This document shows, in pieces, positions 2,268 through 52,559 of a DNA stretch of 64,000 nt; position 1 is the stretch's first letter; every line of letters starts with the position of its first letter. The notes under the pieces were generated by a model. The model saw only the letters and a program-made list of their open reading frames with translations. It was not told the origin of the DNA and searched no databases. The position numbers and the translations under genes were made by a program. This DNA comes from an uncultured Anaerolinea sp. (GTDB taxonomy: Bacteria; Chloroflexota; Anaerolineae; Anaerolineales; UBA4823): the NCBI GenBank assembly GCA_964416275.1, contig CAYQDU010000002.1, forward strand, positions 1,282 through 65,281. Reading direction: 5' to 3'.

Positions 2268-2484
2268 GGCTCTCCCAAATTCACCGGGAAAGAAGCTATG
2301 GCTCTTCCGCCGAAGGCGGAAACTTTTCTATGTTTTGGGGAAATTGTGGGGCTATGCTCCACAATTTCCCCAAAACATAACTTTTTCCCCGGCGAAGCTG
2401 GAAGAGTCGAAGTTATCTTGGATGGCCCTTGCGTGGCCGCAAGGACCATCCAAGATAGGAAATCTCGCTTTCAGCGGAAGAGCC
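2268..2484. repeat. cluster of nested palindromic repeats (type-1 element 2300-2408 with inner hairpin 2333-2375; second hairpin 2414-2457; terminal GCGGAAGAGCC arm 2474-2484)
   Basis: Outer arms are GGCTCTTCCGCCGAAGGCGG and CCGGCGAAGCTGGAAGAGTC. The inner 17-bp perfect stem is TTTTGGGGAAATTGTGG/CCACAATTTCCCCAAAA. The same architecture recurs at 31374, 32787, 32906 and 34433. Confidence 0.85.
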
Positions 2485-8666: not shown

Positions 8667-8722
8667 GGCTCTTCCGGCTTTGCCAAAGTACCGCACCAAA
8701 TCTCGCCTTTGGCGGAAGAGCC
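8667..8722. repeat. minimal copy of the type-1 repeat (arms GGCTCTTCCGGCTTTGCC / GCCTTTGGCGGAAGAGCC without the long inner hairpin)
   Basis: Read directly from the sequence. It is followed (to about 8800) by sequence resembling the M4 tail module (AACCCATGCAGGG). Confidence 0.7.
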
Positions 8723-8816: not shown

Positions 8817-9797
8817 ATGCTAAGTTTATACAAGCTCGAGGTGTTCAATACAGTGGCGGCCGAGGGCAGCTTTAGCCGAGCAGCGAAACGCCTGAGGCTG
8901 ACCCAGCCGGCCGTGAGTCAGCACATCCGCGATCTGGAATCAACCTTAGGTCAGGAACTTTTTGAAAGAGGAAATCGCGGCGTTACCCTGACGCCCGCCG
9001 GCGAGCTTCTACTCGACTATACACGCTGCATCCTGCATCTATTGAGCGAGGCGGAAAATGCGCTCACCACATTCAATAGACGTTCCAGCGGATCACTGAC
9101 GATTGGGGCCACCCCAGGGGTGGGCGTTTATCTGCTTCCCGAATGGGTTCAACAGTTTCGAACGCGCTACCCGCAGATCATGGCTGTGATGCGAACGGGG
9201 TCCACTTCTCAGATCGCTGCCGAAGTGCGTGACGGAGGGTTGGATTTTGGTCTGATCGAGGGAGAACTGTCTCCCGACCCACCGTTACAGGTTTTGCCTT
9301 TTCGAAACATCGAGCTGCGCCTGATCGTGCGTGAAGGACATCCGTTGTCACGCTCCCCCTCGGTGGCTATTACCGACCTGGATAGGCAGGCATTTATTGC
9401 TCGCCCCGCCGGCAGCCATACCCGCCAGTGGACCGACCAGCTTTTCGCGCAAAACGGGGTTATGCCTGAAGTAGTTGCCGAATTCGATAACCCTGAAGCG
9501 ATCCTCCAGGCGGTGGCAGCCGGGTTGGGTATCAGCCTGCTGCCAGACTGGGCTTTACCAACCGGGTCGAGCGGCAGATTACGGGCAATCCCAGTTGTAG
9601 GGGCCAGCTTGCAGCGTACCCTCAAGCTGCTCTGGAGCGACATTGTACCGTTTAAGCCCGCCGCGCAGGCCTTTTTATCTCACCTGATAGACCTTTATCC
9701 GGTATTGAGCCAGGGGTTAAGCCTGACCAGGCGTGATCTGCTGGAGTTTTCGCAGCGCAGCGACTATCGAGCAAGCCGGAGCTGTTTACCCGAATGA
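8817..9797 (+). CDS. LysR-family transcriptional regulator
   Basis: N-terminal HTH: LEVFNTVAAEGSFSRAAKRLRLTQPAVSQHIRDLESTLGQELFER. The remainder is a LysR substrate-binding domain of typical length. Confidence 0.9.
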   Translation: MLSLYKLEVFNTVAAEGSFSRAAKRLRLTQPAVSQHIRDLESTLGQELFERGNRGVTLTPAGELLLDYTRCILHLLSEAENALTTFNRRSSGSLTIGATPGVGVYLLPEWVQQFRTRYPQIMAVMRTGSTSQIAAEVRDGGLDFGLIEGELSPDPPLQVLPFRNIELRLIVREGHPLSRSPSVAITDLDRQAFIARPAGSHTRQWTDQLFAQNGVMPEVVAEFDNPEAILQAVAAGLGISLLPDWALPTGSSGRLRAIPVVGASLQRTLKLLWSDIVPFKPAAQAFLSHLIDLYPVLSQGLSLTRRDLLEFSQRSDYRASRSCLPE

Positions 9798-9884: not shown

Positions 9885-11105
9885 ATGATAAGTTCCGATT
9901 TTATCACCACCTATATTGGAACCTATACCCGGCGCGAGTCATTTGTAGACGGCAAGGCCGAAGGCATTTACATCTATCGCCTGGATCTTCGCTCCGGCGG
10001 ACTGACCCACACCGCCACTGTAACCGGCGAAGGCGCGGTTAATCCGTCATATCTGGCGTTCGGGCCCAGCAAGCGCTATCTCTATGCAGTCAACGAGATC
10101 ACCCGAGGCGCAGGCCCGCATGGGACTGTCAGCGCCTTTGCCGTCGATCCGGTGACCGGCGGGTTGCGTTACCTGAACCAGCAGTCCACGGTTGGGCTAT
10201 CACCGTGCTATGTGAGCGTCGAGCCGGAAGGCCGCTACTGCCTGGCGGCGAACTATGAGAGCGGCAGCGTCAGCGTTTTGCCGATCCGCGAAGACGGGTC
10301 CTTGGGAGAGACAACTGATACGATTCAGTTTTCCGGTTCCGGACCTAATGTCGAGCGACAGGAAGGCCCGCATGCCCACATGATTGCGCCTGCCCCTTAT
10401 GACCGTCTCATTCTGACTATCGACCTGGGCGCAGACCGGCTGATGGCGTTCTATCTCGATCTGGAACGGGGCAGGCTAAGCCCGGCTGCTTCTGCGTGGA
10501 CGCAGTTTCCTCCCGGCGCCGGCCCGCGCCACCTCGCCTTTCACCCCCGCCAGCCATTCGTCTACGTCATCAATGAACTTCAATCCACGGTCACCGTTTT
10601 CCAATATCTGGGGATCTCCCGGCTTCGCCGGGAAAAAAGTACAATTTGGGGATCAGCGCGCAACGCAGCCGCGCAAAGACCTCCAAACACAGAAGAAATC
10701 CCACCTGCAACCGAAGAGCCATATCAGGAAGGGCAGAGCCTGTTTAAGAGGGTACAGGTCATTTCAACCCTGCCCACCGATTTCACCGGACAAAACCTGG
10801 GCGCAGCAATCCGGGTTGCACCCTCGGGGCGCTTTGTCTACGCATCCAATCGGGGTCACAACAGCCTGGCGATCTATGCCGCCGACCCGGAGACTGGCCG
10901 GCTATCCCTGATTGGACACCAGCCAACGCAGGGCGCTGCGCCGCGCGATTTCAATATCGACCCAACCGGCGCACTGCTGCTGGTTGCCAACCAGGACTCG
11001 GACACGCTGGTCACCTTCTGGATCGATCCCGATTCCGGTACGCTGCGGGCAGCCGGGAGCGTGGCGACGCCAACGCCGGTTTGCATCCAACTGGCTGACG
11101 CATGA
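9885..11105 (+). CDS. lactonase-family 7-bladed beta-propeller protein (6-phosphogluconolactonase YbhE-like) carrying a repeat-derived in-frame insertion
   Basis: YIGTYT... GIYIYRLD start, NPSYLAF, SPCYVSV, GPRHLAFHP, repeated propeller blades, and a C-terminal PRDFNIDPTGALLLVANQDSDTLVTF. Start ATG 9885 is preferred over the track start 9840. Confidence 0.8.
   Translation: MISSDFITTYIGTYTRRESFVDGKAEGIYIYRLDLRSGGLTHTATVTGEGAVNPSYLAFGPSKRYLYAVNEITRGAGPHGTVSAFAVDPVTGGLRYLNQQSTVGLSPCYVSVEPEGRYCLAANYESGSVSVLPIREDGSLGETTDTIQFSGSGPNVERQEGPHAHMIAPAPYDRLILTIDLGADRLMAFYLDLERGRLSPAASAWTQFPPGAGPRHLAFHPRQPFVYVINELQSTVTVFQYLGISRLRREKSTIWGSARNAAAQRPPNTEEIPPATEEPYQEGQSLFKRVQVISTLPTDFTGQNLGAAIRVAPSGRFVYASNRGHNSLAIYAADPETGRLSLIGHQPTQGAAPRDFNIDPTGALLLVANQDSDTLVTFWIDPDSGTLRAAGSVATPTPVCIQLADA
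10611..10720. repeat. degenerate type-1 repeat copy inserted in frame inside the lactonase CDS
   Basis: GGGATCTCCCGGCTTCGCCGGGAAAAAAG...TTTGGGG...CCAAACACAGAAGAAATCCCACCTGCAACCGAAGAGCC. The right flank is nearly identical to intergenic copy 34506-34541 (AAACACAGAAGAATTCCCACCTTGGGCAGGAGAGCC). Confidence 0.75.
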
Positions 11106-13151: not shown

Positions 13152-13651
13152 ATCTTCTGCCCTTCCAGTGCCTCTATCAATCCCAGGTAAGGGTTGCTGC
13201 TATCTTTCTCACGCAAACGAGCGGCCATTTTTTCAAGCGCCCGGTTGAACACCTGCCCCAGTTCGTCCGGAATGAAGCCGGCGGCGATGCAGCGCAAGAC
13301 CGGCGCCAGGTGATCGGGCAGTTCTCCGCCTGTCTCCACACCAGCCTGGCGGCAGGCTGCCTGCATCTGCGTCAGGAAGTTGCCCCGCCTGTAATCTTCG
13401 CCCCAGATATGGAAACCGATATAGGGCGGGGTAAGGGGGTCCAGGTCCCAGGTGCGGGTGTACAGTTCCTCCCATTCGCCCAGGCTCAGCCGCCCAACCT
13501 GCGCCAGGAAGCCCAGCAATGCGGCTCGCCGGGGATGCGCCGCCAGGCGACCGGCATCCAGGGTGAGCTGTTCGTGCAGGCCCGCAAACGGATAGCGAAA
13601 GGCGTCGGCATAGATGGCATAGGTCGCATCGCTGATGGTTGGGGTGATCAT
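13148..13651 (-). CDS. narJ: nitrate reductase molybdenum cofactor assembly chaperone
   Basis: 167 aa between narH and narI, with typical NarJ/TorD-like size and position (YAIYADAFRYPF..., LPDHLAPVLRCIA). Confidence 0.8.
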   Translation of the reverse strand: MITPTISDATYAIYADAFRYPFAGLHEQLTLDAGRLAAHPRRAALLGFLAQVGRLSLGEWEELYTRTWDLDPLTPPYIGFHIWGEDYRRGNFLTQMQAACRQAGVETGGELPDHLAPVLRCIAAGFIPDELGQVFNRALEKMAARLREKDSSNPYLGLIEALEGQKI

Positions 13652-13654
13652 GGT

Positions 13655-15163
13655 TCACTCCCCACGCCGCGGCGCTTGCAGGTAGCCCAGCCCGGCCTCG
13701 CCCTTGTGGGCCAGCGGGTCGCGCAGCGCTTCCACCGATAGCTCGCGGTGATAAGGGGGCAGCAAAAAGCGCTCGTCGAGGGTGGGCAGCGTGGTCAGGC
13801 GGTAGATGGCCTCTGCCTGGGCGGCGTCCAGCCCGGCCTCGACCAGCATGGCTTGCGTGGCCTCGTCCACATCACCTTCAACGCTCTGGCGCCGCTTATA
13901 GGCGCGCACCGCCAACAGCTTGCGCAGGATTGTGCGAATCGGGGCTTCATCACCGGCGCTGAACAGGTTTGCCAGGTATTTCACCGGCATACGGGCATCG
14001 TCCAGGTGGCGGAACAGCTCAAAGTCGTGAGCGTCATCGGATAGATCCAGTTTATACAGCCCTTCTTCGATTACGCTGACCACCGGTGAGAGCGGCAGGA
14101 TGTAGAACATCATCGCCAGCGTGCGGAATTCGGGATGCAGCGGCAGGGCCAGCCCCCACTGCTTGACGAACTTATAGACGGGCGATTTCTGGGCAGCCTC
14201 GATCCAGCCGGCATCCAGGCCGCTATCATAAGCGGCGGCGATCACCTGCGGGTCGAACGGGTCGAGGATAGCCGCCCGCTGCGCCGCCGCCAGATCGCGA
14301 GCTGGCCCCATAGCCGCTTCAGGCAGCCGGTCGGCGTCGTACAACAGCACGCCCATGTAGCGAATGCGCCCTACGCAGGAATGGGCGCAGGCCGGCGCCT
14401 GGCCGGTTTCCAGGCGTGGGAAGCACAGGATGCACTTCTCAGACTTGCCAGTGGCCCAGTTGTAATACACTTTCTTATAGGGGCAGGCAGCCACGCACAT
14501 GCGCCAGGCGCGGCACTTGTTCTCGTTCACCAGCACCACGCCGTCTTCGCTGCGCTTATAGATCGCCCCGGATGGGCAGGCGGCCACGCAGGCCGGGTTC
14601 AGACAGTGGTTGCAGATGCGCGGCAGATAGTTGAACACCAGCCGTTCCAGCTCGCTCAACTGCTCGCGCACCGTTTCCGGCAGGCCGTCCAGGTTCAGGT
14701 CGTTCTCGGCATACAGCTTCGACCCGCCCAGATCGTCATCCCAATTGGGGCCGCCCTTAATTTCCATCGGCTGCCCGGTAATCATCGAGATGGGGATAGC
14801 GGTGGGCTGGTCATCGCCGGCCGGGGCGTCGAACAGGTCCTTATACCGGAAAGTGAACGGCTCGTAGTAATCGTCCAGCTCCGGCAAGCTGGGGTTGTAG
14901 AAAAGTTTGAGCAGCCCGCCCAGCCTGGAGTGCAGGCGCAGGCGCAGCGCGCCATCCTTCATCTCCCATCCGCCGCGGAAATGCTGCTGATCTTCCCACT
15001 GGGTTGGGTAGCCGGTTCCTGGGCGGGTCTCGACGTTGTTCCACCACATATATTCCGCGCCCTTGCGGTCTGTCCACAGGTTCTTGCAGGCCACCGAGCA
15101 GGTATGGCAGCCGATACACTTATCCAGGTGGAAAAGCATGCTCATGTGCGCGCGTACTTCCAT
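13655..15163 (-). CDS. narH: respiratory nitrate reductase beta subunit (Fe-S)
   Basis: MSMLFHLDKCIGCHTCSVACKNLWTDRKGAEYMWWNNVETRPGTGYP, CNHCLNPACVAACPSGAIYKRSEDGVVLVNENKCRAWRMCVAACPYKKVYYNW. Canonical NarH. Confidence 0.95.
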   Translation of the reverse strand: MEVRAHMSMLFHLDKCIGCHTCSVACKNLWTDRKGAEYMWWNNVETRPGTGYPTQWEDQQHFRGGWEMKDGALRLRLHSRLGGLLKLFYNPSLPELDDYYEPFTFRYKDLFDAPAGDDQPTAIPISMITGQPMEIKGGPNWDDDLGGSKLYAENDLNLDGLPETVREQLSELERLVFNYLPRICNHCLNPACVAACPSGAIYKRSEDGVVLVNENKCRAWRMCVAACPYKKVYYNWATGKSEKCILCFPRLETGQAPACAHSCVGRIRYMGVLLYDADRLPEAAMGPARDLAAAQRAAILDPFDPQVIAAAYDSGLDAGWIEAAQKSPVYKFVKQWGLALPLHPEFRTLAMMFYILPLSPVVSVIEEGLYKLDLSDDAHDFELFRHLDDARMPVKYLANLFSAGDEAPIRTILRKLLAVRAYKRRQSVEGDVDEATQAMLVEAGLDAAQAEAIYRLTTLPTLDERFLLPPYHRELSVEALRDPLAHKGEAGLGYLQAPRRGE

Positions 15164-15200: not shown

Positions 15201-18200
15201 CTAAAATTCCACCTGATCGAGCTTGCGAACGAACACAAAGGTATCGCGGTTCACGCCCGTCGGCCCCCAGTAGTTGAACGCATAGGAAAACTGGGCGTAA
15301 CCGCCGCTCATCAGCACCGGCTTGAGCCGGATCCGGGTCATCGAGTTATTCATCCCTGCCCGGCGGCCGCGCCCCGGCGACTTCGGAATGCCAACCGTAC
15401 GTTCGGTGGCATGATAGACAAACACCGTCCCGGCCGGGATGCGGGCGGAAACGCTGGCCCGCTGCACAAATACACCGTTGTCGTTGTACAATTCGACCCA
15501 GTCATTGTCCTCGATGCCCAGTTCGGCCGCGTCTTTATCATTGAGCCAGACGGGGTAGCCGCCGCGCGATAGGGTCATCATGCGGTGGTTCTCCGAGTAG
15601 GTGGAGTGAATGCTCCACTTGCCATGCGGCGTAATGTAATTGAACAGCTTGCCGTGCTGCCCGGCCAGGAGGCTCTGGTCAGCATCGCTGACCATCGTGT
15701 GGTCGGGCTTGGGCTTGTAGACCGGTAGATGCTCGCCCCAGGCCAGGTAGCTCTCGTGATCCAGATAAAAATGCTGCCGCCCGGTAAGCGTGCGCCATGG
15801 CACCAGCCGGTCCACATTGAGCGTAAACGGCGAATACGCGCGGCCCTGATTGACAATGGCCGACCAGGTGGGCGCGGTCAGCACCCGCCGGGGCTGGGAG
15901 ACAAGGTCGGCAAACGAGTAGCGCACATCGCGCAGCCCTGCGGCCAGGTCGGTTAATTCCAGGCCGGTCTTATGCTCTTCTAACGCAAAGGCGCGGTGGG
16001 CCAGCTCGCCGTTGGAGGCCGGGTCCAAGCGCAGGATGGCATTGGCAGCCTGGCGGGCTTCCTCCAGCGAGGGATAGCACACCGGCTCAGCTTTCGAGCC
16101 ATCCGGCCCGCTGCCATTCCCGTTCGCCCGGGGCCATGATTTGCCAAAGGTGCGCGGCTGCTGGGCCAACAATGCCTGATATTCATCTGCGACCGGAATC
16201 GTCAGCCCATGCGCGTTTACCCCGTTCTGCTCGACGCCGCGCCCCAAACTGACCATACACTCGTACAGGCTGGTATAGTCACGCTCGATGACCCGGAACT
16301 TGGGCATTGTCTTTCCAGGGATCGGTTCGACTTCGCCAGTCTTCCAATCCTGCACCGTCGGCTGAGCCAGCTCGTCGGGGGTATCGTGCTGCAAGGGAAG
16401 CATGACGATGTCTTTGACCGGCTGGCGCAGATGGACGCGCGCAAATTCGCTGACCTTAAACGCCACCGCCTTGTAGATTTCCCAATCGCTCTTCGATTCC
16501 CATGCCGGCGGTACAACCGCCTGCATGGGGTTGATAAACGAATGCAGATCGGTGGTGTTCAGATCGTCTTTTTCGTACCAGGTGGCGGCCGGCAGCACCA
16601 GGTCCGAGTACAGCGCCGAGGTATCCATGCGGAAGTTCAGGTCTACCACCAGGTCGAGCTTGCCGGTGGGGGCCTGGGGATGATAGGCAACTTCGGAGGT
16701 GCAGCCCTGGGCCAGTTCGGCGGCGATGGTGTTGCTGTGCGTTCCCAGGTAATGGCGCATAAAGTATTCATGGCCCTTGGCGCTGGCGCCGATGGCGTTG
16801 CCGCGCCAGATGAACCACACCCGGGGCCAGTTTTCCGGCGCGTCTGGGTCTTCTACGGCGAACTTCAGGCGGCCCTGCTTCAACTGCGCCACAACGTGGT
16901 TGATGATCTCGGCGTCGGTAGCGGCCCCCTGATCCTGAGCTTCTTTGACCACAGCCAGCGGGCTGCGGTTGAACTGGGGGAAGAACGGCAGCCAGCCGCG
17001 CCGCACCGCTCGCACCTGATGATCGATGGTATGACCGCCGGCCAGGTCTGTTGCTCCGCCCGGCAGTGCATCGTAAGCGGCAAAGCCACGCTCGTAGCGC
17101 CATTGGTCGGAATGTACATAATGGAAGGAAGGCGTGTTCTGCTGGCGGGAAGCCATGCCCCAATCGCCGGCAAAAGCAATCGCGCCCCAGGAGGCGTGAT
17201 TAACCAGCTTCTCCTGCCCCACGTAGTGCGCCAGCCCGCCGCCGTTCACGCCCACGCTGCCGGTCAGCATCAGCGCTGTGATGGCCGAGCGATAGATCAG
17301 GTTGTTGTGATACCAGTGATTGGCCCCTGCGCCGATGATGACCAGGTTCTTGCCGTGGGTCTTCTCGGCATTGTGGCCCCACTCTCTGGCAAAGCGCAGC
17401 AGGGTGTCGCGGTGAATGCCGGTCAGCGACTCTTGCCAGGCGGGCGTGTAGCAGGCCTCCTCGTCATACGACTGCGGATACTCACCCGGCAGGCCGCGCC
17501 CCACCCCAAAGCGGGCCATGGTCAGGTCGAACACCGTCGCCACGGCCACGCGCCCGGCGCTGGTCTGCACGTAGCGCACCGGAACGCCGCGCCGCAAAAC
17601 CGTTCCGCTTTCAAAGGCGTCGAAGCCTAATTCCAAGACATCGTCATGCGCATCGAGGAAGCTCAATTCCGGGTCAAGCGCCGCGCTGGTGCTGGCGTCT
17701 TCCATCTTCAGGTTCCACTTGCCTGGGTCTTGCTTGCTCCAGCGAAAGCCAATACTGCCCTTCGGCATGCGAGCGGTATCGCTGGCCCGATCCCAGACCA
17801 GCAGCTTCCAATCCCCATGTTCCTCATCGGCATAGTCTGCCAGGCGGTTAGCGCGCAGGTATCGGCCGGGCGCAGCCCTCACCCCTGGCCCCTCTCCCCT
17901 GCCGGGAGAGGCGAAGCCCAAACCTTCTTGCCCCATCTCATCAGGGGAGGCGAGGGGAATCTCCACCAAAAAGGGCATATCGGTATACTGCTTCAGATAC
18001 GCATTGAAATACGGCGTCTGCCGGTCAACATAGAATTCTTTGAGCAGCACATGGTTGACCGCCATCCAAAAAGCGGCGTCTTGTCCAGCGTGTACCGGGA
18101 TCCAGTAATCGGCATATTTAGCCACCTGCGAAAAATCGGGCGAAAAAACCGTCAGCTTGGCCCCCGCGTGGCGCACTTCGGAGATGAAATGCGTGTCGGG

Positions 18201-18938
18201 CGTGCGGGTCATGTTCAGGTTGGCGCCCATAACGGCAATAAAGCGGGCGTTGTACCAGTCGGCCGATTCGTGCACGTCGGTCTGCTCTCCCCACACCTCC
18301 GGGCTGGCCGGCGGCAGGTCGCAGTACCAGTCATAGAAGCTCATCGGCACGCCCCCCAACAGCGATAGGAAACGGCTGCCGGCGGCGTAGCTGATCTGCG
18401 ACATGGCCGGAATGGGCGAAAAGCCCACCACCCGGTCGGGGCCGTACTGCTTGACCGTATAGATCACCGAGGCGGCAATAATTTCCAACGCCTCGTCCCA
18501 GGAGATGCGCCGGAAGCCGCCTTTGCCGCGCGCCGTCTGAATGGCGCGCCGCTTTTCCGGGTCAGAGACAAGCACCGCCCAGGCGGCCACCGGGTCGCTG
18601 TACTGCTTGCGCGCTTCCCGCCAGGCGTCGATCAGCGTCCCGCGCCCGTAGGGGTATTTCACCCGGATCGGGCTGTACAGATACCACGAGAAGCTGATGC
18701 CGCGCTGGCAGCCGCGCGGCTCATAAGGAGGCAGGCCGGCTTCAAGCTGCGGGTAATCGGTGGCCTGCAGCTCCCAGGTGACGATGCCATCTTTGACGAA
18801 CACCTCCCACGAGCAGCTCCCGGTGCAGTTCACGCCATGCGTGGTGCGCACACGCCGGTCGTGCTGAAAACGGTTGCGATAAAATTCCTCCCACTGACGC
18901 TCAGCGGGCGATTCGACATCCTTAGTCCACTCATCCAT
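15201..18938 (-). CDS. narG: respiratory nitrate reductase alpha subunit (Mo-bisMGD), cytoplasmic Nar/Nxr type, with an in-frame repeat-derived insertion
   Basis: FS0 motif [23 protein letters not shown]. 1245 aa. No twin-arginine signal. Followed by narHJI. Confidence 0.95.
17873..17962. repeat. palindromic repeat (arms CCCCTCTCCCCT / AGGGGAGGCGAGGGG) embedded in frame in narG, encoding ...[28 protein letters not shown]...
   Basis: The arms match the arms of the intergenic element at 37743-37878 (TCTCATC..AGGGGAG.GAGGGG). There is an internal small hairpin CCTCTCCC-CTGCC-GGGAGAGG. Confidence 0.65.
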
Positions 18939-26149: not shown

Positions 26150-26275
26150 GCCTCAGGCTGAACAGCAGCGCTCTCCGAAACCGGGGTGGAGACGCCTGGC
26201 GAGCTTCGCCGAAAGAGATGTTGCGCGGATTTTGTCGCCCTTCGGGCGACAAAATCCGCCTTCGGCGGAAGAGCC
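26150..26275. repeat. mosaic repeat: inverted M4 tail module + H2 hairpin (26226-26258, UUCG-type loop) + type-1 arm GCCTTCGGCGGAAGAGCC
   Basis: CGGATTTTGTCGCCC-TTCG-GGGCGACAAAATCCG is a perfect 15-bp stem. GGTGGAGACGCCTGGCGAGCTTCGCCGAAAGAG is the reverse complement of the module seen at 31764-31797 and 52508-52535. Confidence 0.8.
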
Positions 26276-31373: not shown

Positions 31374-31480
31374 GGCTCTTCCGCCGAAGGCGAGAATTTT
31401 TCTATCTTTGGGGTTGTCGCCTAGCTACGCCAGGCGACAACCCCAAAGACAATTTCTTTCCCGGCGAAGCCGGAAGAGCC
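31374..31480. repeat. full type-1 nested palindromic repeat (inner hairpin 31407-31447)
   Basis: GGCTCTTCCGCCGAAGGCG ... TTTGGGGTTGTCGCCT-AGCTACGCC-AGGCGACAACCCCAAA ... CCGGCGAAGCCGGAAGAGCC. The inner stem is a perfect 16 bp. Confidence 0.85.
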
Positions 31481-31678
31481 GCTTTTTCTGCTGGCGGGTA
31501 ATATTTCCGAGCTATTGTATCTCTTTAAGGGTTCTACGGGATGGGCAATTTGCGGCTATGTTTGCCTTATTGGTTCGAATCTCCCGCGTTGGTTCGCTCT
31601 TGTGGAACCCCCATGTCTCGATTTCCCCGCTCAACCGCCGGGCGCCGCTGCGGGGACCACCCGATTAAACCGTGGAAC

Positions 31679-31818
31679 CGGCATGATGCTCTTCAAGCGA
31701 CCCCCCAAAAGAGATGCTGCGGAGGTTTTGTCGCACTTCGGGCGACAAAATCCAAGATCAATCCTCTTTCGGCAAAGCTCGCCAGCCACCTCCACCCCGG
31801 TTGCATGGGGAGCTAACC
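31679..31818. repeat. mosaic repeat: degenerate H3 + H2 hairpin (31724-31753) + M4 tail
   Basis: Collinear with 52423-52559 (…CTCTTCAAGCG…AAAAGAGATG…TTTTGTCGC…GCGACAAAATCC…CTCGCCAG.CACC.CCACC..GGTTGCATGGG.AGCTA.CC). Confidence 0.8.
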
Positions 31819-32786: not shown

Positions 32787-32993
32787 GGCTCTTCCGCCGA
32801 AGGTGGGGATTTTTCTATATTTTTAGGAAAATGTGCGGCTACGCCGCACATTTCCCCAAAAATAACACCTCTTTCCCGGCAAAGCCGGGAGAGCCAAACT
32901 TTTTTGGCTCCTCCACCGCAGGCGGTTTTTTTCTATATTTTGGGGTTGCTATGCGGCGTAGCCGCATAGCAACCCCAAAATCGGACTGCTCTC
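32787..32993. repeat. two tandem type-1 nested palindromic repeats (32787-32895 with hairpin 32821-32861; 32906-32993 with hairpin 32938-32980)
   Basis: Copy 2 has a perfect 19-bp inner stem, TTTTGGGGTTGCTATGCGG-CGTAG-CCGCATAGCAACCCCAAAA. Copy 1 stem is TTTTAGGAAAATGTGCGG-CTACG-CCGCACATTTCCCCAAAA (2 mismatches). Confidence 0.9.
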
Positions 32994-32997
32994 TTTT

Positions 32998-34293
32998 CTA
33001 TCCGTTTTGCATAAGAGCCGCCGCCCGGCGGCCGATCTCTACGGCGAAGTTGGTGCCGCGATCCCACGGGTAGACCTGGCTCATGCTGGCAAAATACAGG
33101 CCGGGAATGGGCGTCTGGATAGCCGGGATGTTTTTGGAATGATTAACCAACGGGATAGGCTGGGCATAGGCGGTGCGGAACAGCCAGCTTTTGCGCACCC
33201 ACTCGGGTTTGAAATCGGGGTTGATGCGGCTCAGGGCGGGCAGATAGCGGGCCAGCAGCTCGTCCTGGCTGAGGCGGAAATATTCGTGGTCGGTTTCCAG
33301 GTAATCGCCCAGGTACAGGATGTGATCGCCGCCGAAGTATTCCGGCTTGAGGTAGTTGGTATGCTCCACCAGGGCCAGAAAGGGGAACCCAGCCGACTTG
33401 GGCAGGTTGTACCAGTAATAGCCCTGGGTGGAAAGCTGGTGTTTCAAGGCCAGCACCATCACCACCGCGCCCATGCTCTTGAGGGCCAACAGTCCGTCCA
33501 GGTAGGCCGGGGGCAGGTCAGGGGCCAGGCGAGCCAGCAGGGCCGGAGAGGTGGTGGATAACACCTGGTCGAAGCGCTGCTCGGCCCCGTTGACCTGCAC
33601 CGCCAGCCCGCCCTGCGGGTGGGCGGCGATCTGCGTCACCGGGGTCCGAAGCTGGATCTGCACTCCCATCTCTTGCAGGCGAGCGGCAAAGCGGTCTGCA
33701 AAAGCCTGGAAGCCGCCCTTGAACGTGCCAAGCCGGGTGGTGCGGGTCTTGAGGCGGGCCCACATCCAGGCCATGTTGACCTGGCGGGCGTAGCGCTCGC
33801 CAAACTTGCCCACCAGCATCGGCTCCCACATCAGTTCATAGACCCGGTTCCCGGCCCACCGGCGCATCCACTCGTCAGTGGTGTATTTCTCCAGGGCGCG
33901 CCAATTGTTGCCCAGGCGCAGGTACAGCCCCACCAGCCCAAAGCGGGCCTTGTTGATGCCCCAGCCCAGGCCGGGGAACAGGATCGCCTTGAGGATCGAG
34001 TCGAACGGGTAGAATTTGCCCTGGTGGTACATGACGGTATAGGGCCGGGGAAAGATTACGTCGTCTTTCCAGCCCAGTTCATCGATCAGGCCCAGCATGT
34101 GCTGGTCGCTGGCGAACCAGTGGTGGTAGAACTTCTCGACGCTCCACTCCCAATGGGGTTCTTTGAACCCGGCTGCCAGCCCACCCACCTCGCCGCTGGC
34201 TTCGAAGATGGTCACGTTGCGCCCGGCCCGGCGCAGGTCATAGGCCGCGGCCATTCCGCCGATCCCGGCCCCGATGATGGCAATGTTTTTCAT
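32998..34293 (-). CDS. NAD(P)/FAD-dependent oxidoreductase (amine oxidase / phytoene desaturase-like fold)
   Basis: MKNIAIIGAGIGGMAAAYDLRRAGRNVTIFEASGEVGGLAAGF dinucleotide-binding motif, 431 aa. Confidence 0.8.
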   Translation of the reverse strand: MKNIAIIGAGIGGMAAAYDLRRAGRNVTIFEASGEVGGLAAGFKEPHWEWSVEKFYHHWFASDQHMLGLIDELGWKDDVIFPRPYTVMYHQGKFYPFDSILKAILFPGLGWGINKARFGLVGLYLRLGNNWRALEKYTTDEWMRRWAGNRVYELMWEPMLVGKFGERYARQVNMAWMWARLKTRTTRLGTFKGGFQAFADRFAARLQEMGVQIQLRTPVTQIAAHPQGGLAVQVNGAEQRFDQVLSTTSPALLARLAPDLPPAYLDGLLALKSMGAVVMVLALKHQLSTQGYYWYNLPKSAGFPFLALVEHTNYLKPEYFGGDHILYLGDYLETDHEYFRLSQDELLARYLPALSRINPDFKPEWVRKSWLFRTAYAQPIPLVNHSKNIPAIQTPIPGLYFASMSQVYPWDRGTNFAVEIGRRAAALMQNG

Positions 34294-34345
34294 AAAATGT
34301 TCCTTCTCAGTTTTTGGGCGGGTACCACCCCATTAAACTGTAAAG

Positions 34346-34541
34346 CAGGCATGGCGCTCCTCGAGCGCCTTCAAAAAAGATGGCACGTGGACTTTGTCGC
34401 ACGAGGTACGGCGAAATCCCCTGAATATCTCTGGCTCTTCTGGCTTCGCCGGGGAAGAAGGTATGTTTTGTGGAAACTGTGTGGCGTAGCCACACAGTTT
34501 CCACAAAACACAGAAGAATTCCCACCTTGGGCAGGAGAGCC
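34346..34541. repeat. mosaic repeat: H3 hairpin + degenerate H2 + full type-1 element (34433-34541, inner hairpin 34466-34508)
   Basis: The inner stem TTTTGTGGAAACTGTGTGG-CGTAG-CCACACAGTTTCCACAAAA is a perfect 19 bp. It shows a G-to-T change in the conserved TTTTGGGG foot, compensated by C-to-A in the partner arm. Confidence 0.9.
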
Positions 34542-37742: not shown

Positions 37743-37878
37743 CCCTCCCCCCGCCCCCTCGCCGAGATGAAGGTGGACTTGCGCCCCAGTGAAAATACAG
37801 GCTGGGGAGTTGGATCGGCAAAGCCGATCCAACTCCCCAGCCCAGCTATCCTCTCTCATCTGAAAGGGGAGAGAGGGG
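37743..37878. terminator. nested palindromic element exactly filling the convergent intergenic gap; the inner perfect 17-bp hairpin (37802-37840) is a likely bidirectional terminator
   Basis: CTGGGGAGTTGGATCGG-CAAAG-CCGATCCAACTCCCCAG. Outer imperfect inverted arms are CCCTCCCCCCGCCCCCTCGCCGAGATGA and TCTCATCTGAAAGGGGAGAGAGGGG. The flanking stop codons are at 37740-42 and 37879-81. Confidence 0.7.
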
Positions 37879-43313: not shown

Positions 43314-43862
43314 CGGCCAGTCTGGGGAGTGAAAAGCGGTGCAACCTGGCGGAGGAGCACCCACCGATAGGGCCGCAAGCCATTTATTGTGCATTTGACC
43401 TGTATATACGATTTATTGATGCACCCGATCGTTAATCTAAAAATATTGCAACCTACCGATTCTGGGACAACCAATTTTGGGACAAATGCCGAAATAGTCT
43501 TGTCAGCGCAGGAAAAATGCGCAATAATAATTATGACTTAAGTACTACTACAATGGATTACCTGGCAAATTCAGTTCGGTGCAAGCCATCCCTAGAACAA
43601 TAAGCCAGCCGGACACCAGGGGGCTGCCACAGGCGTAAATCATTCCATGCACTATCGCTTGCCTGTCGATTGACGCGCCGAGAAATTCGGTGCAGTGTTT
43701 GCATCTCAACCTGCAAGATGTTACGGATCGAAGTGTGAGGCCAAACGACAAGAGAGCCAAGAACCCAAAATAAAAAGGCCCCCTTTTACCGTGGAGGCGT
43801 TGATCCTCAGGATAAGATTGGTCGCTGTACGAGATGATTGTAAGCCTGAGAGGAGCCAATAG

Positions 43863-43895
43863 CGAAACCGGCCGCGTGGTCGGTTTCGTTTGTTT
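43863..43895 (+). terminator. rho-independent terminator-like hairpin + T-tract
   Basis: CGAAACCGGCC-GCGT-GGTCGGTTTCG followed by TTTGTTT. Confidence 0.5.
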
Positions 43896-44275
43896 AATCA
43901 TCTACACCTGCATCCTGATCCATCAACTGTTCCGTTTTACCGTGATGTCCGATCTTACCGGTACTGGCTTAAACTGAAAAGAGCCGGGTTGTCGGAAGCA
44001 TCCAGGAGACAGTTAATATTGGTAGCGCATCGCTTGATCCCGACAATTGCGTGCAAATCTTACCCGATTATCCAATGACCCCACGACACCTGGCTGTGTC
44101 GGGAGGGCGGAGCGCGAAAAGCAAAAACCTCTACGCTGACCATAAAATTTATTCGACTTGAATGATGTTCCATCCTTCAAGTCTTCATGTGGATGCAATG
44201 ATCCATAGGCGGTATTCTGGTCGCTAACAAGATTCCAGTCTGGGGGGAGGAATAGCCTATGGGGAGCAAATAGCG

Positions 44276-44305
44276 AAACCGGCCACAGATGGCCGGTTTT
44301 TTAAT
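44276..44305 (+). terminator. rho-independent terminator-like hairpin + T-tract
   Basis: AAACCGGCC-ACAGAT-GGCCGGTTT followed by TTTAATTT. The 5' flank GGAGCAAATAGCGAAACCGGCC is nearly identical to the flank of the 43863 hairpin. Confidence 0.55.
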
Positions 44306-52380: not shown

Positions 52381-52559
52381 GGCTCTTCCGGCTTCGCCGG
52401 GAAAGAAGAGCTACTGTGGAACAGGCATGGCGCTCTTCAAGCGCCATCAAAAAGAGATGTTACGTGGATTTTGTCGCCCGAAGTGCGACAAAATCCACGA
52501 GTAATCCTCTCTGGGCAAGGCTCGCCAGTCACCCCCACGGTTGCATGGGAAGCTACCCT
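52381..52559. repeat. mosaic repeat: type-1 left arm + H3 hairpin (52427-52447) + H2 hairpin (52465-52497) + M4 tail
   Basis: GGCTCTTCCGGCTTCGCCGGGAAAGAAG; ATGGCGCT-CTTCA-AGCGCCAT; TGGATTTTGTCGCCC-GAAG-TGCGACAAAATCCA; CTCGCCAGTCACCCCCACGGTTGCATGGGAAGCTACCC. Confidence 0.85.

Follow-up and report, generated by a model that had tools for sequence, protein, structure and literature searches.

A predicted lactonase gene of an uncultured Anaerolinea sp. carries an in-frame copy of a palindromic repeat with ISL3-like ends

How a palindromic repeat found between genes could come to lie inside the gene of a conserved enzyme, and leave it readable, is the question raised by a locus in an uncultured Anaerolinea sp. 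of the Chloroflexota (GenBank contig CAYQDU010000002.1). We analyzed a stretch of 64,000 nucleotides of this contig, positions 1,282 to 65,281 (hereafter the window; all coordinates below are window positions unless another locus is named). It contains a gene for a seven-bladed beta-propeller protein of the 6-phosphogluconolactonase/YbhE type (the lactonase gene). From the letters of the sequence alone, this gene had been proposed to contain a copy of an intergenic "type-1" repeat, inserted in frame. That original prediction is borne out by the match of the segment to a model of the repeat, by an 8-bp target duplication, by the absence of the segment from 48 homologs and from relatives in the Protein Data Bank (PDB), and by an AlphaFold2 model. 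In the account that we consider very probable, a non-autonomous MITE (miniature inverted-repeat transposable element) of 109 bp would have entered the lactonase gene at the target ATATCTGG, mobilized in trans by a transposase of the ISL3 family. The 8-bp target would have been duplicated, the total of 117 bp would have left the downstream frame unshifted, and the product would tolerate the resulting loop.

The additional segment and the intergenic repeat

The lactonase gene begins with an ATG at position 9885, which agrees with the N-termini of its homologs (the coordinates of the features are collected in Table 1). Its product matches the PF10282 profile with E = 6.6e-111 and, by this match and its propeller fold, belongs to that family; the lactonase activity of the 406-residue protein is predicted from the same two properties. 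The profile match is broken into two stretches around the insert. The solved relatives (PDB entries 3fgb, 3scy, 6igb, 4qrj, 3hfq, 6nau, and 1ri6) align in two blocks as well, and query residues ∼242–290 are skipped. A search of 5.8 billion proteins returned thousands of relatives, the best 120 of which share 62–69% BLAST identity over the whole query and are mostly ∼368 residues long, compared with 406 residues here. Two alignments were made, one with 15 relatives and one with 48 (69–75% identity over aligned columns). In both, the larger of which has 49 sequences, exactly 39 consecutive columns are filled by the window protein alone, and in the larger they are empty in all 48 homologs. The conserved strands TVTVFQY and LFKRVQVISTLP border these 39 residues; they are the very flanks that had been given for a hydrophilic stretch of about 40 residues foreign to the family, and the read-through peptide agrees with that earlier description too. 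An equivalent segment is found in none of the 48 aligned homologs and in none of the PDB relatives; the few longer homologs among those aligned carry their additional residues elsewhere, chiefly at the N-terminus.

The nature of the segment was probed with a covariance model (R1) built from four intergenic copies only (34433–34541, 31374–31480, 32787–32895, and 2300–2408). R1 matches the plus strand of the lactonase gene over model positions 1–109 with 50.5 bits (E = 6e-10) and the opposite strand with 22 bits; the similarity is statistically supported. The sequence quoted in the original prediction was located in the lactonase reading frame at 10611–10720, as written, and the element itself is refined to 10612–10720. 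It aligns with the intergenic copies without a gap and agrees with the consensus of the three 109-nt copies at 75 of 104 positions (72%; arms 77–83%, center 60%), compared with 88–92% identity for the intergenic copies themselves. A 17-mer of the left arm, CCGGCTTCGCCGGGAAA, occurs six times in the window at no more than two mismatches, against an expectation of 0.04. The right 36 nt had been called nearly identical to 34506–34541. The first 22 nt do match at 21 positions in BLAST, but the wording is slightly overstated for the whole, which matches at 29 of 36 (81%).

The 8-bp direct repeats that bound the element differ at a single position, a degree of match with a probability of ∼4e-4 by chance according to our own arithmetic. 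Because the element (109 nt) and the duplication (8 nt) add up to 117 nt, or 39 codons, the downstream frame is kept. The reading frame that runs through the element contains no stop codon; of the four canonical intergenic copies, three are open in this frame as well. Deletion of 10612–10728 in silico yields TAT CTG GAA GGG CAG AGC (YLEGQS), and this restored stretch is like the homolog turn Y-x-E-Q-Q-G in both length and character. Read from its sequence, the site is a classical insertion event with an empty site that can be reconstructed.

A loop specific to this lineage of lactonases, resembling the repeat by chance or itself the source from which the repeat family was born, would fit the low likeness of the center of the copy to the consensus (60%) and the observation that shuffled sequence folds as well as the copy does. 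It would not fit a full-length match to a model that was built without the copy, a gap-free alignment of exactly the canonical 109 nt, a direct repeat (7/8) placed exactly at the ends of the element, or an excision that restores the length and sequence of the homolog loop. Nor would it fit the spread of the family over many Chloroflexota genomes, with duplications of its own at unrelated sites. We give a lineage-specific loop almost no credence and regard it as effectively refuted already.

The insertion is not confined to one assembly. The identical 406-residue protein is encoded on contigs of four independent samples; two of these contigs differ from the window outside the gene and none differs inside it. 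Words of the region were found in 20 public runs, which belong to 13 or more studies and comprise metagenomes of wastewater, biofilm, sludge, sediment, and manure together with two runs labeled with a named organism. An RNA search gave two runs, both of unknown type. No empty-site joint was found in eight runs, and every contig crossing the site has the insert; the insertion is fixed or present in every metagenome population examined. Metagenome depth rises ∼10-fold over the left arm only, which shows that these communities contain many further copies whose left arm is similar. Short-read contigs do break within the repeat (in run X7, for example, they end at 10675 and start at 10722), as might be expected if assembly had misjoined a repeat copy into the lactonase gene. 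Such an artifact is practically out of the question, since contigs from independent samples and assemblers cross the whole insert at 100% identity and since the many unique substitutions in the copy mean that it is not a collapsed consensus.

One metagenome contig (L001) is otherwise more than 99.8% identical to the window, yet has ∼70 differences within 180 nt at 13485–13661, a segment that covers the 5′ part of a narJ-like gene and the junction with narH. Such clustering resembles either a patch of local recombination or a segment that is hypervariable.

The enlarged protein and the decayed copy

AlphaFold2 was run with the 49-sequence alignment and gave a model with a mean predicted local distance difference test (pLDDT) value of 87 and a predicted template-modeling score (pTM) of 0.86. 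The seven-bladed propeller is retained around the insert. The flanking strands (residues 235–241 and 287–294) are confidently modeled and are, in sequence order, strands three and four of blade 5. Within the insert, a low-confidence helix (residues 244–262) is followed by a disordered, acidic, proline-rich stretch; the 10-residue blocks from 241 to 270 have average pLDDT values of 70, 61, and 56, and values are below 50 at residues 269–281. Comparison with 3scy, 4qrj, and 1ri6 in Foldseek gave template-modeling scores of 0.91–0.94 when normalized to the target and ∼0.8 when normalized to the query, a gap that matches the unaligned insert. As modeled, the gene encodes a propeller with a 39-residue added loop in the hairpin that joins strands three and four (outermost) of blade 5. 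It had been suggested that the insert might prove to be an inter-blade loop. The model does place it between two strands, but these belong to the same blade. In propellers generally, the hairpin of the third and fourth strands of a blade lies at the outer rim, at a distance from the central channel that holds the active sites. This position would explain why an insertion is tolerated. Two tryptic peptides, STIWGSAR and NAAAQRPPNTEEIPPATEEPYQEGQSLFK, are predicted from the insert.

The inner hairpin of the copy is degraded, as had been proposed. The lactonase copy folds with an energy of −31.5 kcal/mol (z = −1.7), where the intergenic copies reach −56 to −71 kcal/mol (z = −7 to −10). The small hairpin of the left arm is still whole in the fold (element positions 6–22, window 10617–10633). 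The small hairpin of the right arm is gone where other copies have CCGCCTTCGGCGG, and the ends of the copy are partly degenerate (GGATCTCC... and ...GAAGAGCC). Judged by its 72% identity to the consensus, the one mutated base of the duplication, the lost right-arm hairpin, and the interrupted central stem, the copy is old; it is probably an immobile fossil now. Both the palindrome and the right-arm hairpin were lost after the insertion. A family member in a metagenome-assembled genome (MAG) of an uncultured Anaerolineaceae (locus L005, 5130–5239) begins with GGATCTCCCG, a variant terminus that it shares with the lactonase copy, and this terminus may be native and not a post-insertion mutation.

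The lactonase frame is whole over 1,218 nt, with no stop or frameshift, and the window protein keeps 105 of the 108 columns in which the 48 relatives show no variation and 196 of the 214 columns conserved at ≥90%. The inserted peptide has a grand average of hydropathy (GRAVY) of −1.15 and five hydrophobic residues, whereas the same frame in three intergenic copies gives −0.31 to −0.47 and 11–14. The gene looks functional by its frame, its conservation, and its modeled fold. Had the MITE instead inactivated the lactonase, leaving a pseudogene, the open frame would be a coincidence of a 117-bp length and a stop-poor repeat. The repeat frames are indeed mostly open (four to five of six in the best copies), so that an open frame is weak evidence of selection, and no other member of the alignment is as divergent as the window protein, which has fewer conserved columns than the median relative. 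We nevertheless hold a pseudogene to be improbable, because a copy this old lies in a frame free of stops and frameshifts, because nearly all of the family-invariant residues are retained, because the propeller is modeled with high confidence around the insert, and because the insert is markedly hydrophilic, as expected of a translated surface loop.

Three points weigh against a functional gene with a tolerated loop. The fraction of conserved columns kept by the window protein (0.916) is at the low end of the relatives (0.907–1.0, median 0.976). There is no variation within the gene in the four contigs, and a ratio of nonsynonymous to synonymous substitution rates (dN/dS) is therefore not calculable. 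Finally, the hydrophilic shift is measured against three comparison copies, a small sample in which each copy has a different center. Considering the intact frame, the conservation, and the decay and hydrophilic shift together, we favor a loop that is translated and tolerated and that was smoothed after the insertion, its peptide having either drifted or been selected toward a hydrophilic sequence. The loop site would be tolerated because it lies on the blade's outer rim and not at the central channel. The insert is most likely a tolerated passenger without a function of its own.

The repeat family and its putative transposase

Elements of the repeat family are 56–150 nt in size, number at least seven in the 64-kb window, and carry no transposase gene. 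Their termini, GGCTCTTCCG... and ...CGGAAGAGCC, pair in the consensus fold as a terminal inverted repeat. Across genomes, the common termini amount to ∼24 nt (GGCTCTTCCGGCTTnnnCGGGAAA), each with a small hairpin, and the interior is variable. Copies are present in several Chloroflexota MAGs and in several genomes of the Anaerolineae and Thermoflexales. In related Chloroflexota genomes and metagenomes, nine different copies have perfect (8/8) duplications abutting GGCTC...GAGCC, and their targets are all different and AT-rich; the target-site duplication is thus of fixed length (8 bp). By these sequence features the repeat family is a MITE. Rfam holds no family for the type-1 repeat.

The interior of the window copies is a perfect hairpin with a stem of ∼22 bp. 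Its sequence varies from copy to copy and its self-complementarity is retained, with compensatory double changes at 13 of 38 pairs among four copies (34433, 31374, 32787, and 2300). Centers that vary yet remain paired suggest that the hairpin is either corrected by a hairpin-templated process or kept by strong selection. The apex of the central stem is GGC-GTA-GCC or its reverse complement, and the center is therefore also found flipped.

Table 1. Features of the lactonase locus and copies of the repeat in the window
Feature	Position	Strand	Description
Lactonase gene	9885–11105	+	Open reading frame, 406 residues plus stop; host of the MITE copy; seven-bladed beta-propeller, 6-phosphogluconolactonase/YbhE type
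MITE copy in lactonase gene	10612–10720	+	109 nt; same orientation as copy 34433; in frame, most of residues 243–281
Left target-site duplication	10604–10611	+	ATATCTGG; 8 bp; original target
Right target-site duplication	10721–10728	+	ATATCAGG; 8 bp; 7/8 identical to 10604–10611
Left arm (terminal inverted repeat region)	10612–10641	+	GGATCTCCCGGCTTCGCCGGGAAAAAAG...; 25/30 as consensus
Decayed central palindrome	10642–10689	+	26/43 as consensus; interrupted stem only
Right arm	10690–10720	+	...CAGAAGAAATCCCACCTGCAACCGAAGAGCC; 24/31 as consensus; 21/22 as 34506–34527 (BLAST)
Reference copy	34433–34541	+	109 nt; intergenic between two minus-strand genes; perfect 8-bp duplication ATATCTCT; 124.9 bits
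Intergenic copy	31374–31480	-	107 nt; 116.4 bits
Intergenic copy	32787–32895	-	109 nt; 119.2 bits
Degenerate copy	32906–33019		10 nt after 32787–32895, in tandem; one terminus lost; 48.3 bits
Nested copy	2300–2408	-	109 nt; 7/8 duplication GAAGCTAT / GAAGTTAT
Older copy	2268–2484		Interrupted by copy 2300–2408; own center a different perfect hairpin (2414–2457)
Minimal copy	8667–8722	+	56 nt; two arms only; 35 bits, E = 4e-6

The LysR-type regulator gene (8817–9797) that precedes the lactonase gene has the minimal copy 95 nt upstream of it, and this copy could affect the promoter of the regulator gene. A second intergenic repeat family ("type-2") is present at 26179–26257 (minus strand), 31669–31802, 34337–34420, and 52413–52540 (plus strand), with a conserved hairpin GGATTTTGTCGCCCGAAGnGCGACAAAATCC and a tail ...GCTCGCCAGnCACCnCCAC. 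Two of its four copies adjoin a lone type-1 terminus (26250–26275 and 52381–52408), and a third lies just upstream of copy 34433. Rfam gave no convincing match to the type-2 repeat (best mir-548, 21 bits, E = 0.12). Two stand-alone perfect intergenic hairpins, at 37800–37842 and 1559–1607 (stems of 19–20 bp), match the central part of the repeat model only; long perfect hairpins thus also exist in this genome without MITE arms.

Published elements offer a candidate for the mobilizing enzyme. ISArsp7, an insertion sequence (IS) of the ISL3 family, has an inverted repeat that begins GGCTCTTCG and an 8-bp direct repeat (PMC6305408). A MITE of Microcystis aeruginosa PCC 7806 has an inverted repeat that begins GGCTCTTC and 8-nt direct repeats; its ISL3 partner was identified, and the same reasoning from terminus and 8-bp repeat was used to place it in ISL3 (PMC11448079). 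The family described here has termini beginning GGCTCTT and an AT-rich duplication of 8 bp, in agreement with these published repeats. Because of the terminal motif and the duplication length, the family was most probably mobilized in trans by an ISL3-family transposase.

The family could also have been moved by an enzyme of another kind, such as that of IS256, IS66, IS6, or IS1, given that several IS families produce 8-bp duplications. Parent elements were sought as inverted termini 0.7–3.5 kb apart with matching 8-bp flanks and as open reading frames beside pattern hits. The result speaks against our assignment: neither the window nor 96 loci (∼0.74 Mb in all), a set that does not include the complete source genome, yielded an autonomous ISL3 element or any transposase with such termini. 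A screen of these fetched loci for ISL3-like transposase motifs found nothing either. Candidates for a parent IS at five loci (L013, L049, L016, L018, and L033) encode ordinary genes and no transposase. We consider a non-ISL3 enzyme unlikely, though a possibility of some weight, since ISL3 elements from two unrelated phyla are reported to have GGCTCTTC as their first eight terminal bases, along with direct repeats of 8 bp, and since the same combination already served to assign the Microcystis MITE to that family.

Other in-frame copies and known systems

Together with an extra segment in narG, the lactonase copy had been taken as a sign that repeats colonize coding regions in this genome. We found no support for this generalization beyond the lactonase case. 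NarG (gene 15201–18938) does have ∼21 extra residues near 328–354 compared with E. coli NarG (window 17877–17957, minus strand), but R1 gives no match there. Two database-wide peptide searches turned up no second protein with the repeat in frame. That segment holds a short inverted repeat, CCTCTCCC-GGCA-GGGGAGAGG. A further extra stretch of NarG lies near residues 925–950 (window ∼16090–16165, minus strand), and both extra segments are similar to nothing else in the window.

Among the repeat copies, one of about eight in the window is intragenic. Several other candidates were rejected. The 372-codon frame that seems to cross copy 34433 runs antisense to a genuine gene, which makes the copy intergenic; long frames across copies at loci L019, L042, L005, and L012 contain no Pfam domain; and a copy at L041 lies upstream of a deaminase domain, probably outside the real gene. 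When the translations of all open-frame copies were concatenated and searched against 5.8 billion proteins, the lactonase itself was the only match, the queries being short and their centers variable. A profile of the lactonase-frame peptide, searched against 1.84 billion representatives, found chance matches in three unrelated repeat proteins, through a short FP-D/N-x-E-I motif, and one 74-residue open reading frame over a copy; the clustering at 50% identity can hide inserts and limits the sensitivity of such peptide searches.

Elsewhere in the window are two matches to the c-di-GMP-II-GAG riboswitch aptamer (RF03169, gathering score 40), at 43784–43882 (41.6 bits) and 44182–44292 (plus strand, 53.4 bits). 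They lie on the same strand, 400 nt apart.

In-frame insertion of a palindromic repeat is established for the Rickettsia palindromic elements (RPEs; Ogata et al., 2000, summarized in PMC10969869). In R. conorii, nearly half of the RPE copies lie in genomic open reading frames, and each RPE encodes a conserved peptide (PMC10969869). Like an RPE, the lactonase MITE is a palindromic repeat of ∼100–150 bp that lies in frame in a metabolic gene and encodes a peptide compatible with the fold; alignment and AlphaFold2 model both put the insertion at a structurally tolerated site. Unlike an RPE, it has clear terminal inverted repeats and 8-bp duplications and a Chloroflexota host, and no sequence relationship was seen between the two. 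Frequent intragenic location and a conserved peptide over many genes were also not found for the family, given the single intragenic copy in the window and database-wide peptide searches that returned no other in-frame cases. Judged by its defining features, the lactonase insert is no RPE but a MITE whose ends are ISL3-like.

A bolder reading would make the family a Chloroflexota counterpart of the RPEs after all, with a 109-bp subfamily pre-adapted to genes and an insert co-opted as a surface module. It draws on the fact that 117 bp keeps the frame and that most repeat frames have no stops. An amphipathic helix with an acidic, proline-rich tail, for example, may serve in docking or localization. 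We hold this reading to be quite improbable.

The closest parallels for the ends of the element are the two ISL3-related elements introduced above. The Microcystis MITE shares the terminus GGCTCTTC, the 8-nt direct repeats, and the lack of autonomy, and it differs in interior and host phylum; its partner transposase was identified, whereas none was found here (PMC11448079). ISArsp7 shares the terminal motif GGCTCTTCG... and the 8-bp direct repeat, but elements of its type are ∼1.45 kb long with a transposase gene, whereas the lactonase MITE has 109 bp and no coding capacity of its own (PMC6305408). With respect to location, QMITE1 and QMITE2 of Coxiella burnetii (PMC5896051), and the enterobacterial repetitive intergenic consensus (ERIC) and Anabaena MITEs (PMC10969869), lie inside or overlap annotated genes and contribute in-frame residues. 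Among the QMITE cases considered, those in genes of known function are short overlaps or a 3′-end extension, and the mid-gene cases named are in hypothetical proteins (PMC5896051). The lactonase insertion differs in being internal, in a well-conserved enzyme fold, and in having an empty site that can be reconstructed.

The phenomenon of in-frame MITEs is therefore already known; the lactonase case extends it to the Chloroflexota and leaves current understanding unchanged. What the locus adds is a MITE family whose ends are ISL3-like and which occurs in several genomes of the Anaerolineae and Thermoflexales. Such inserts matter for annotation, as they split domain hits and break short-read contigs, and this one provides a test case for the insertion tolerance of propeller loops. 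Above all, it is a clean natural case in which a selfish repeat would, in a single step, have made a conserved enzyme longer by an entire surface loop, with all stages (target, duplication, frame arithmetic, palindrome decay, and hydrophilic shift) legible in the sequence. Its interest would grow if many in-frame copies were present in a complete genome or if the loop were functional.

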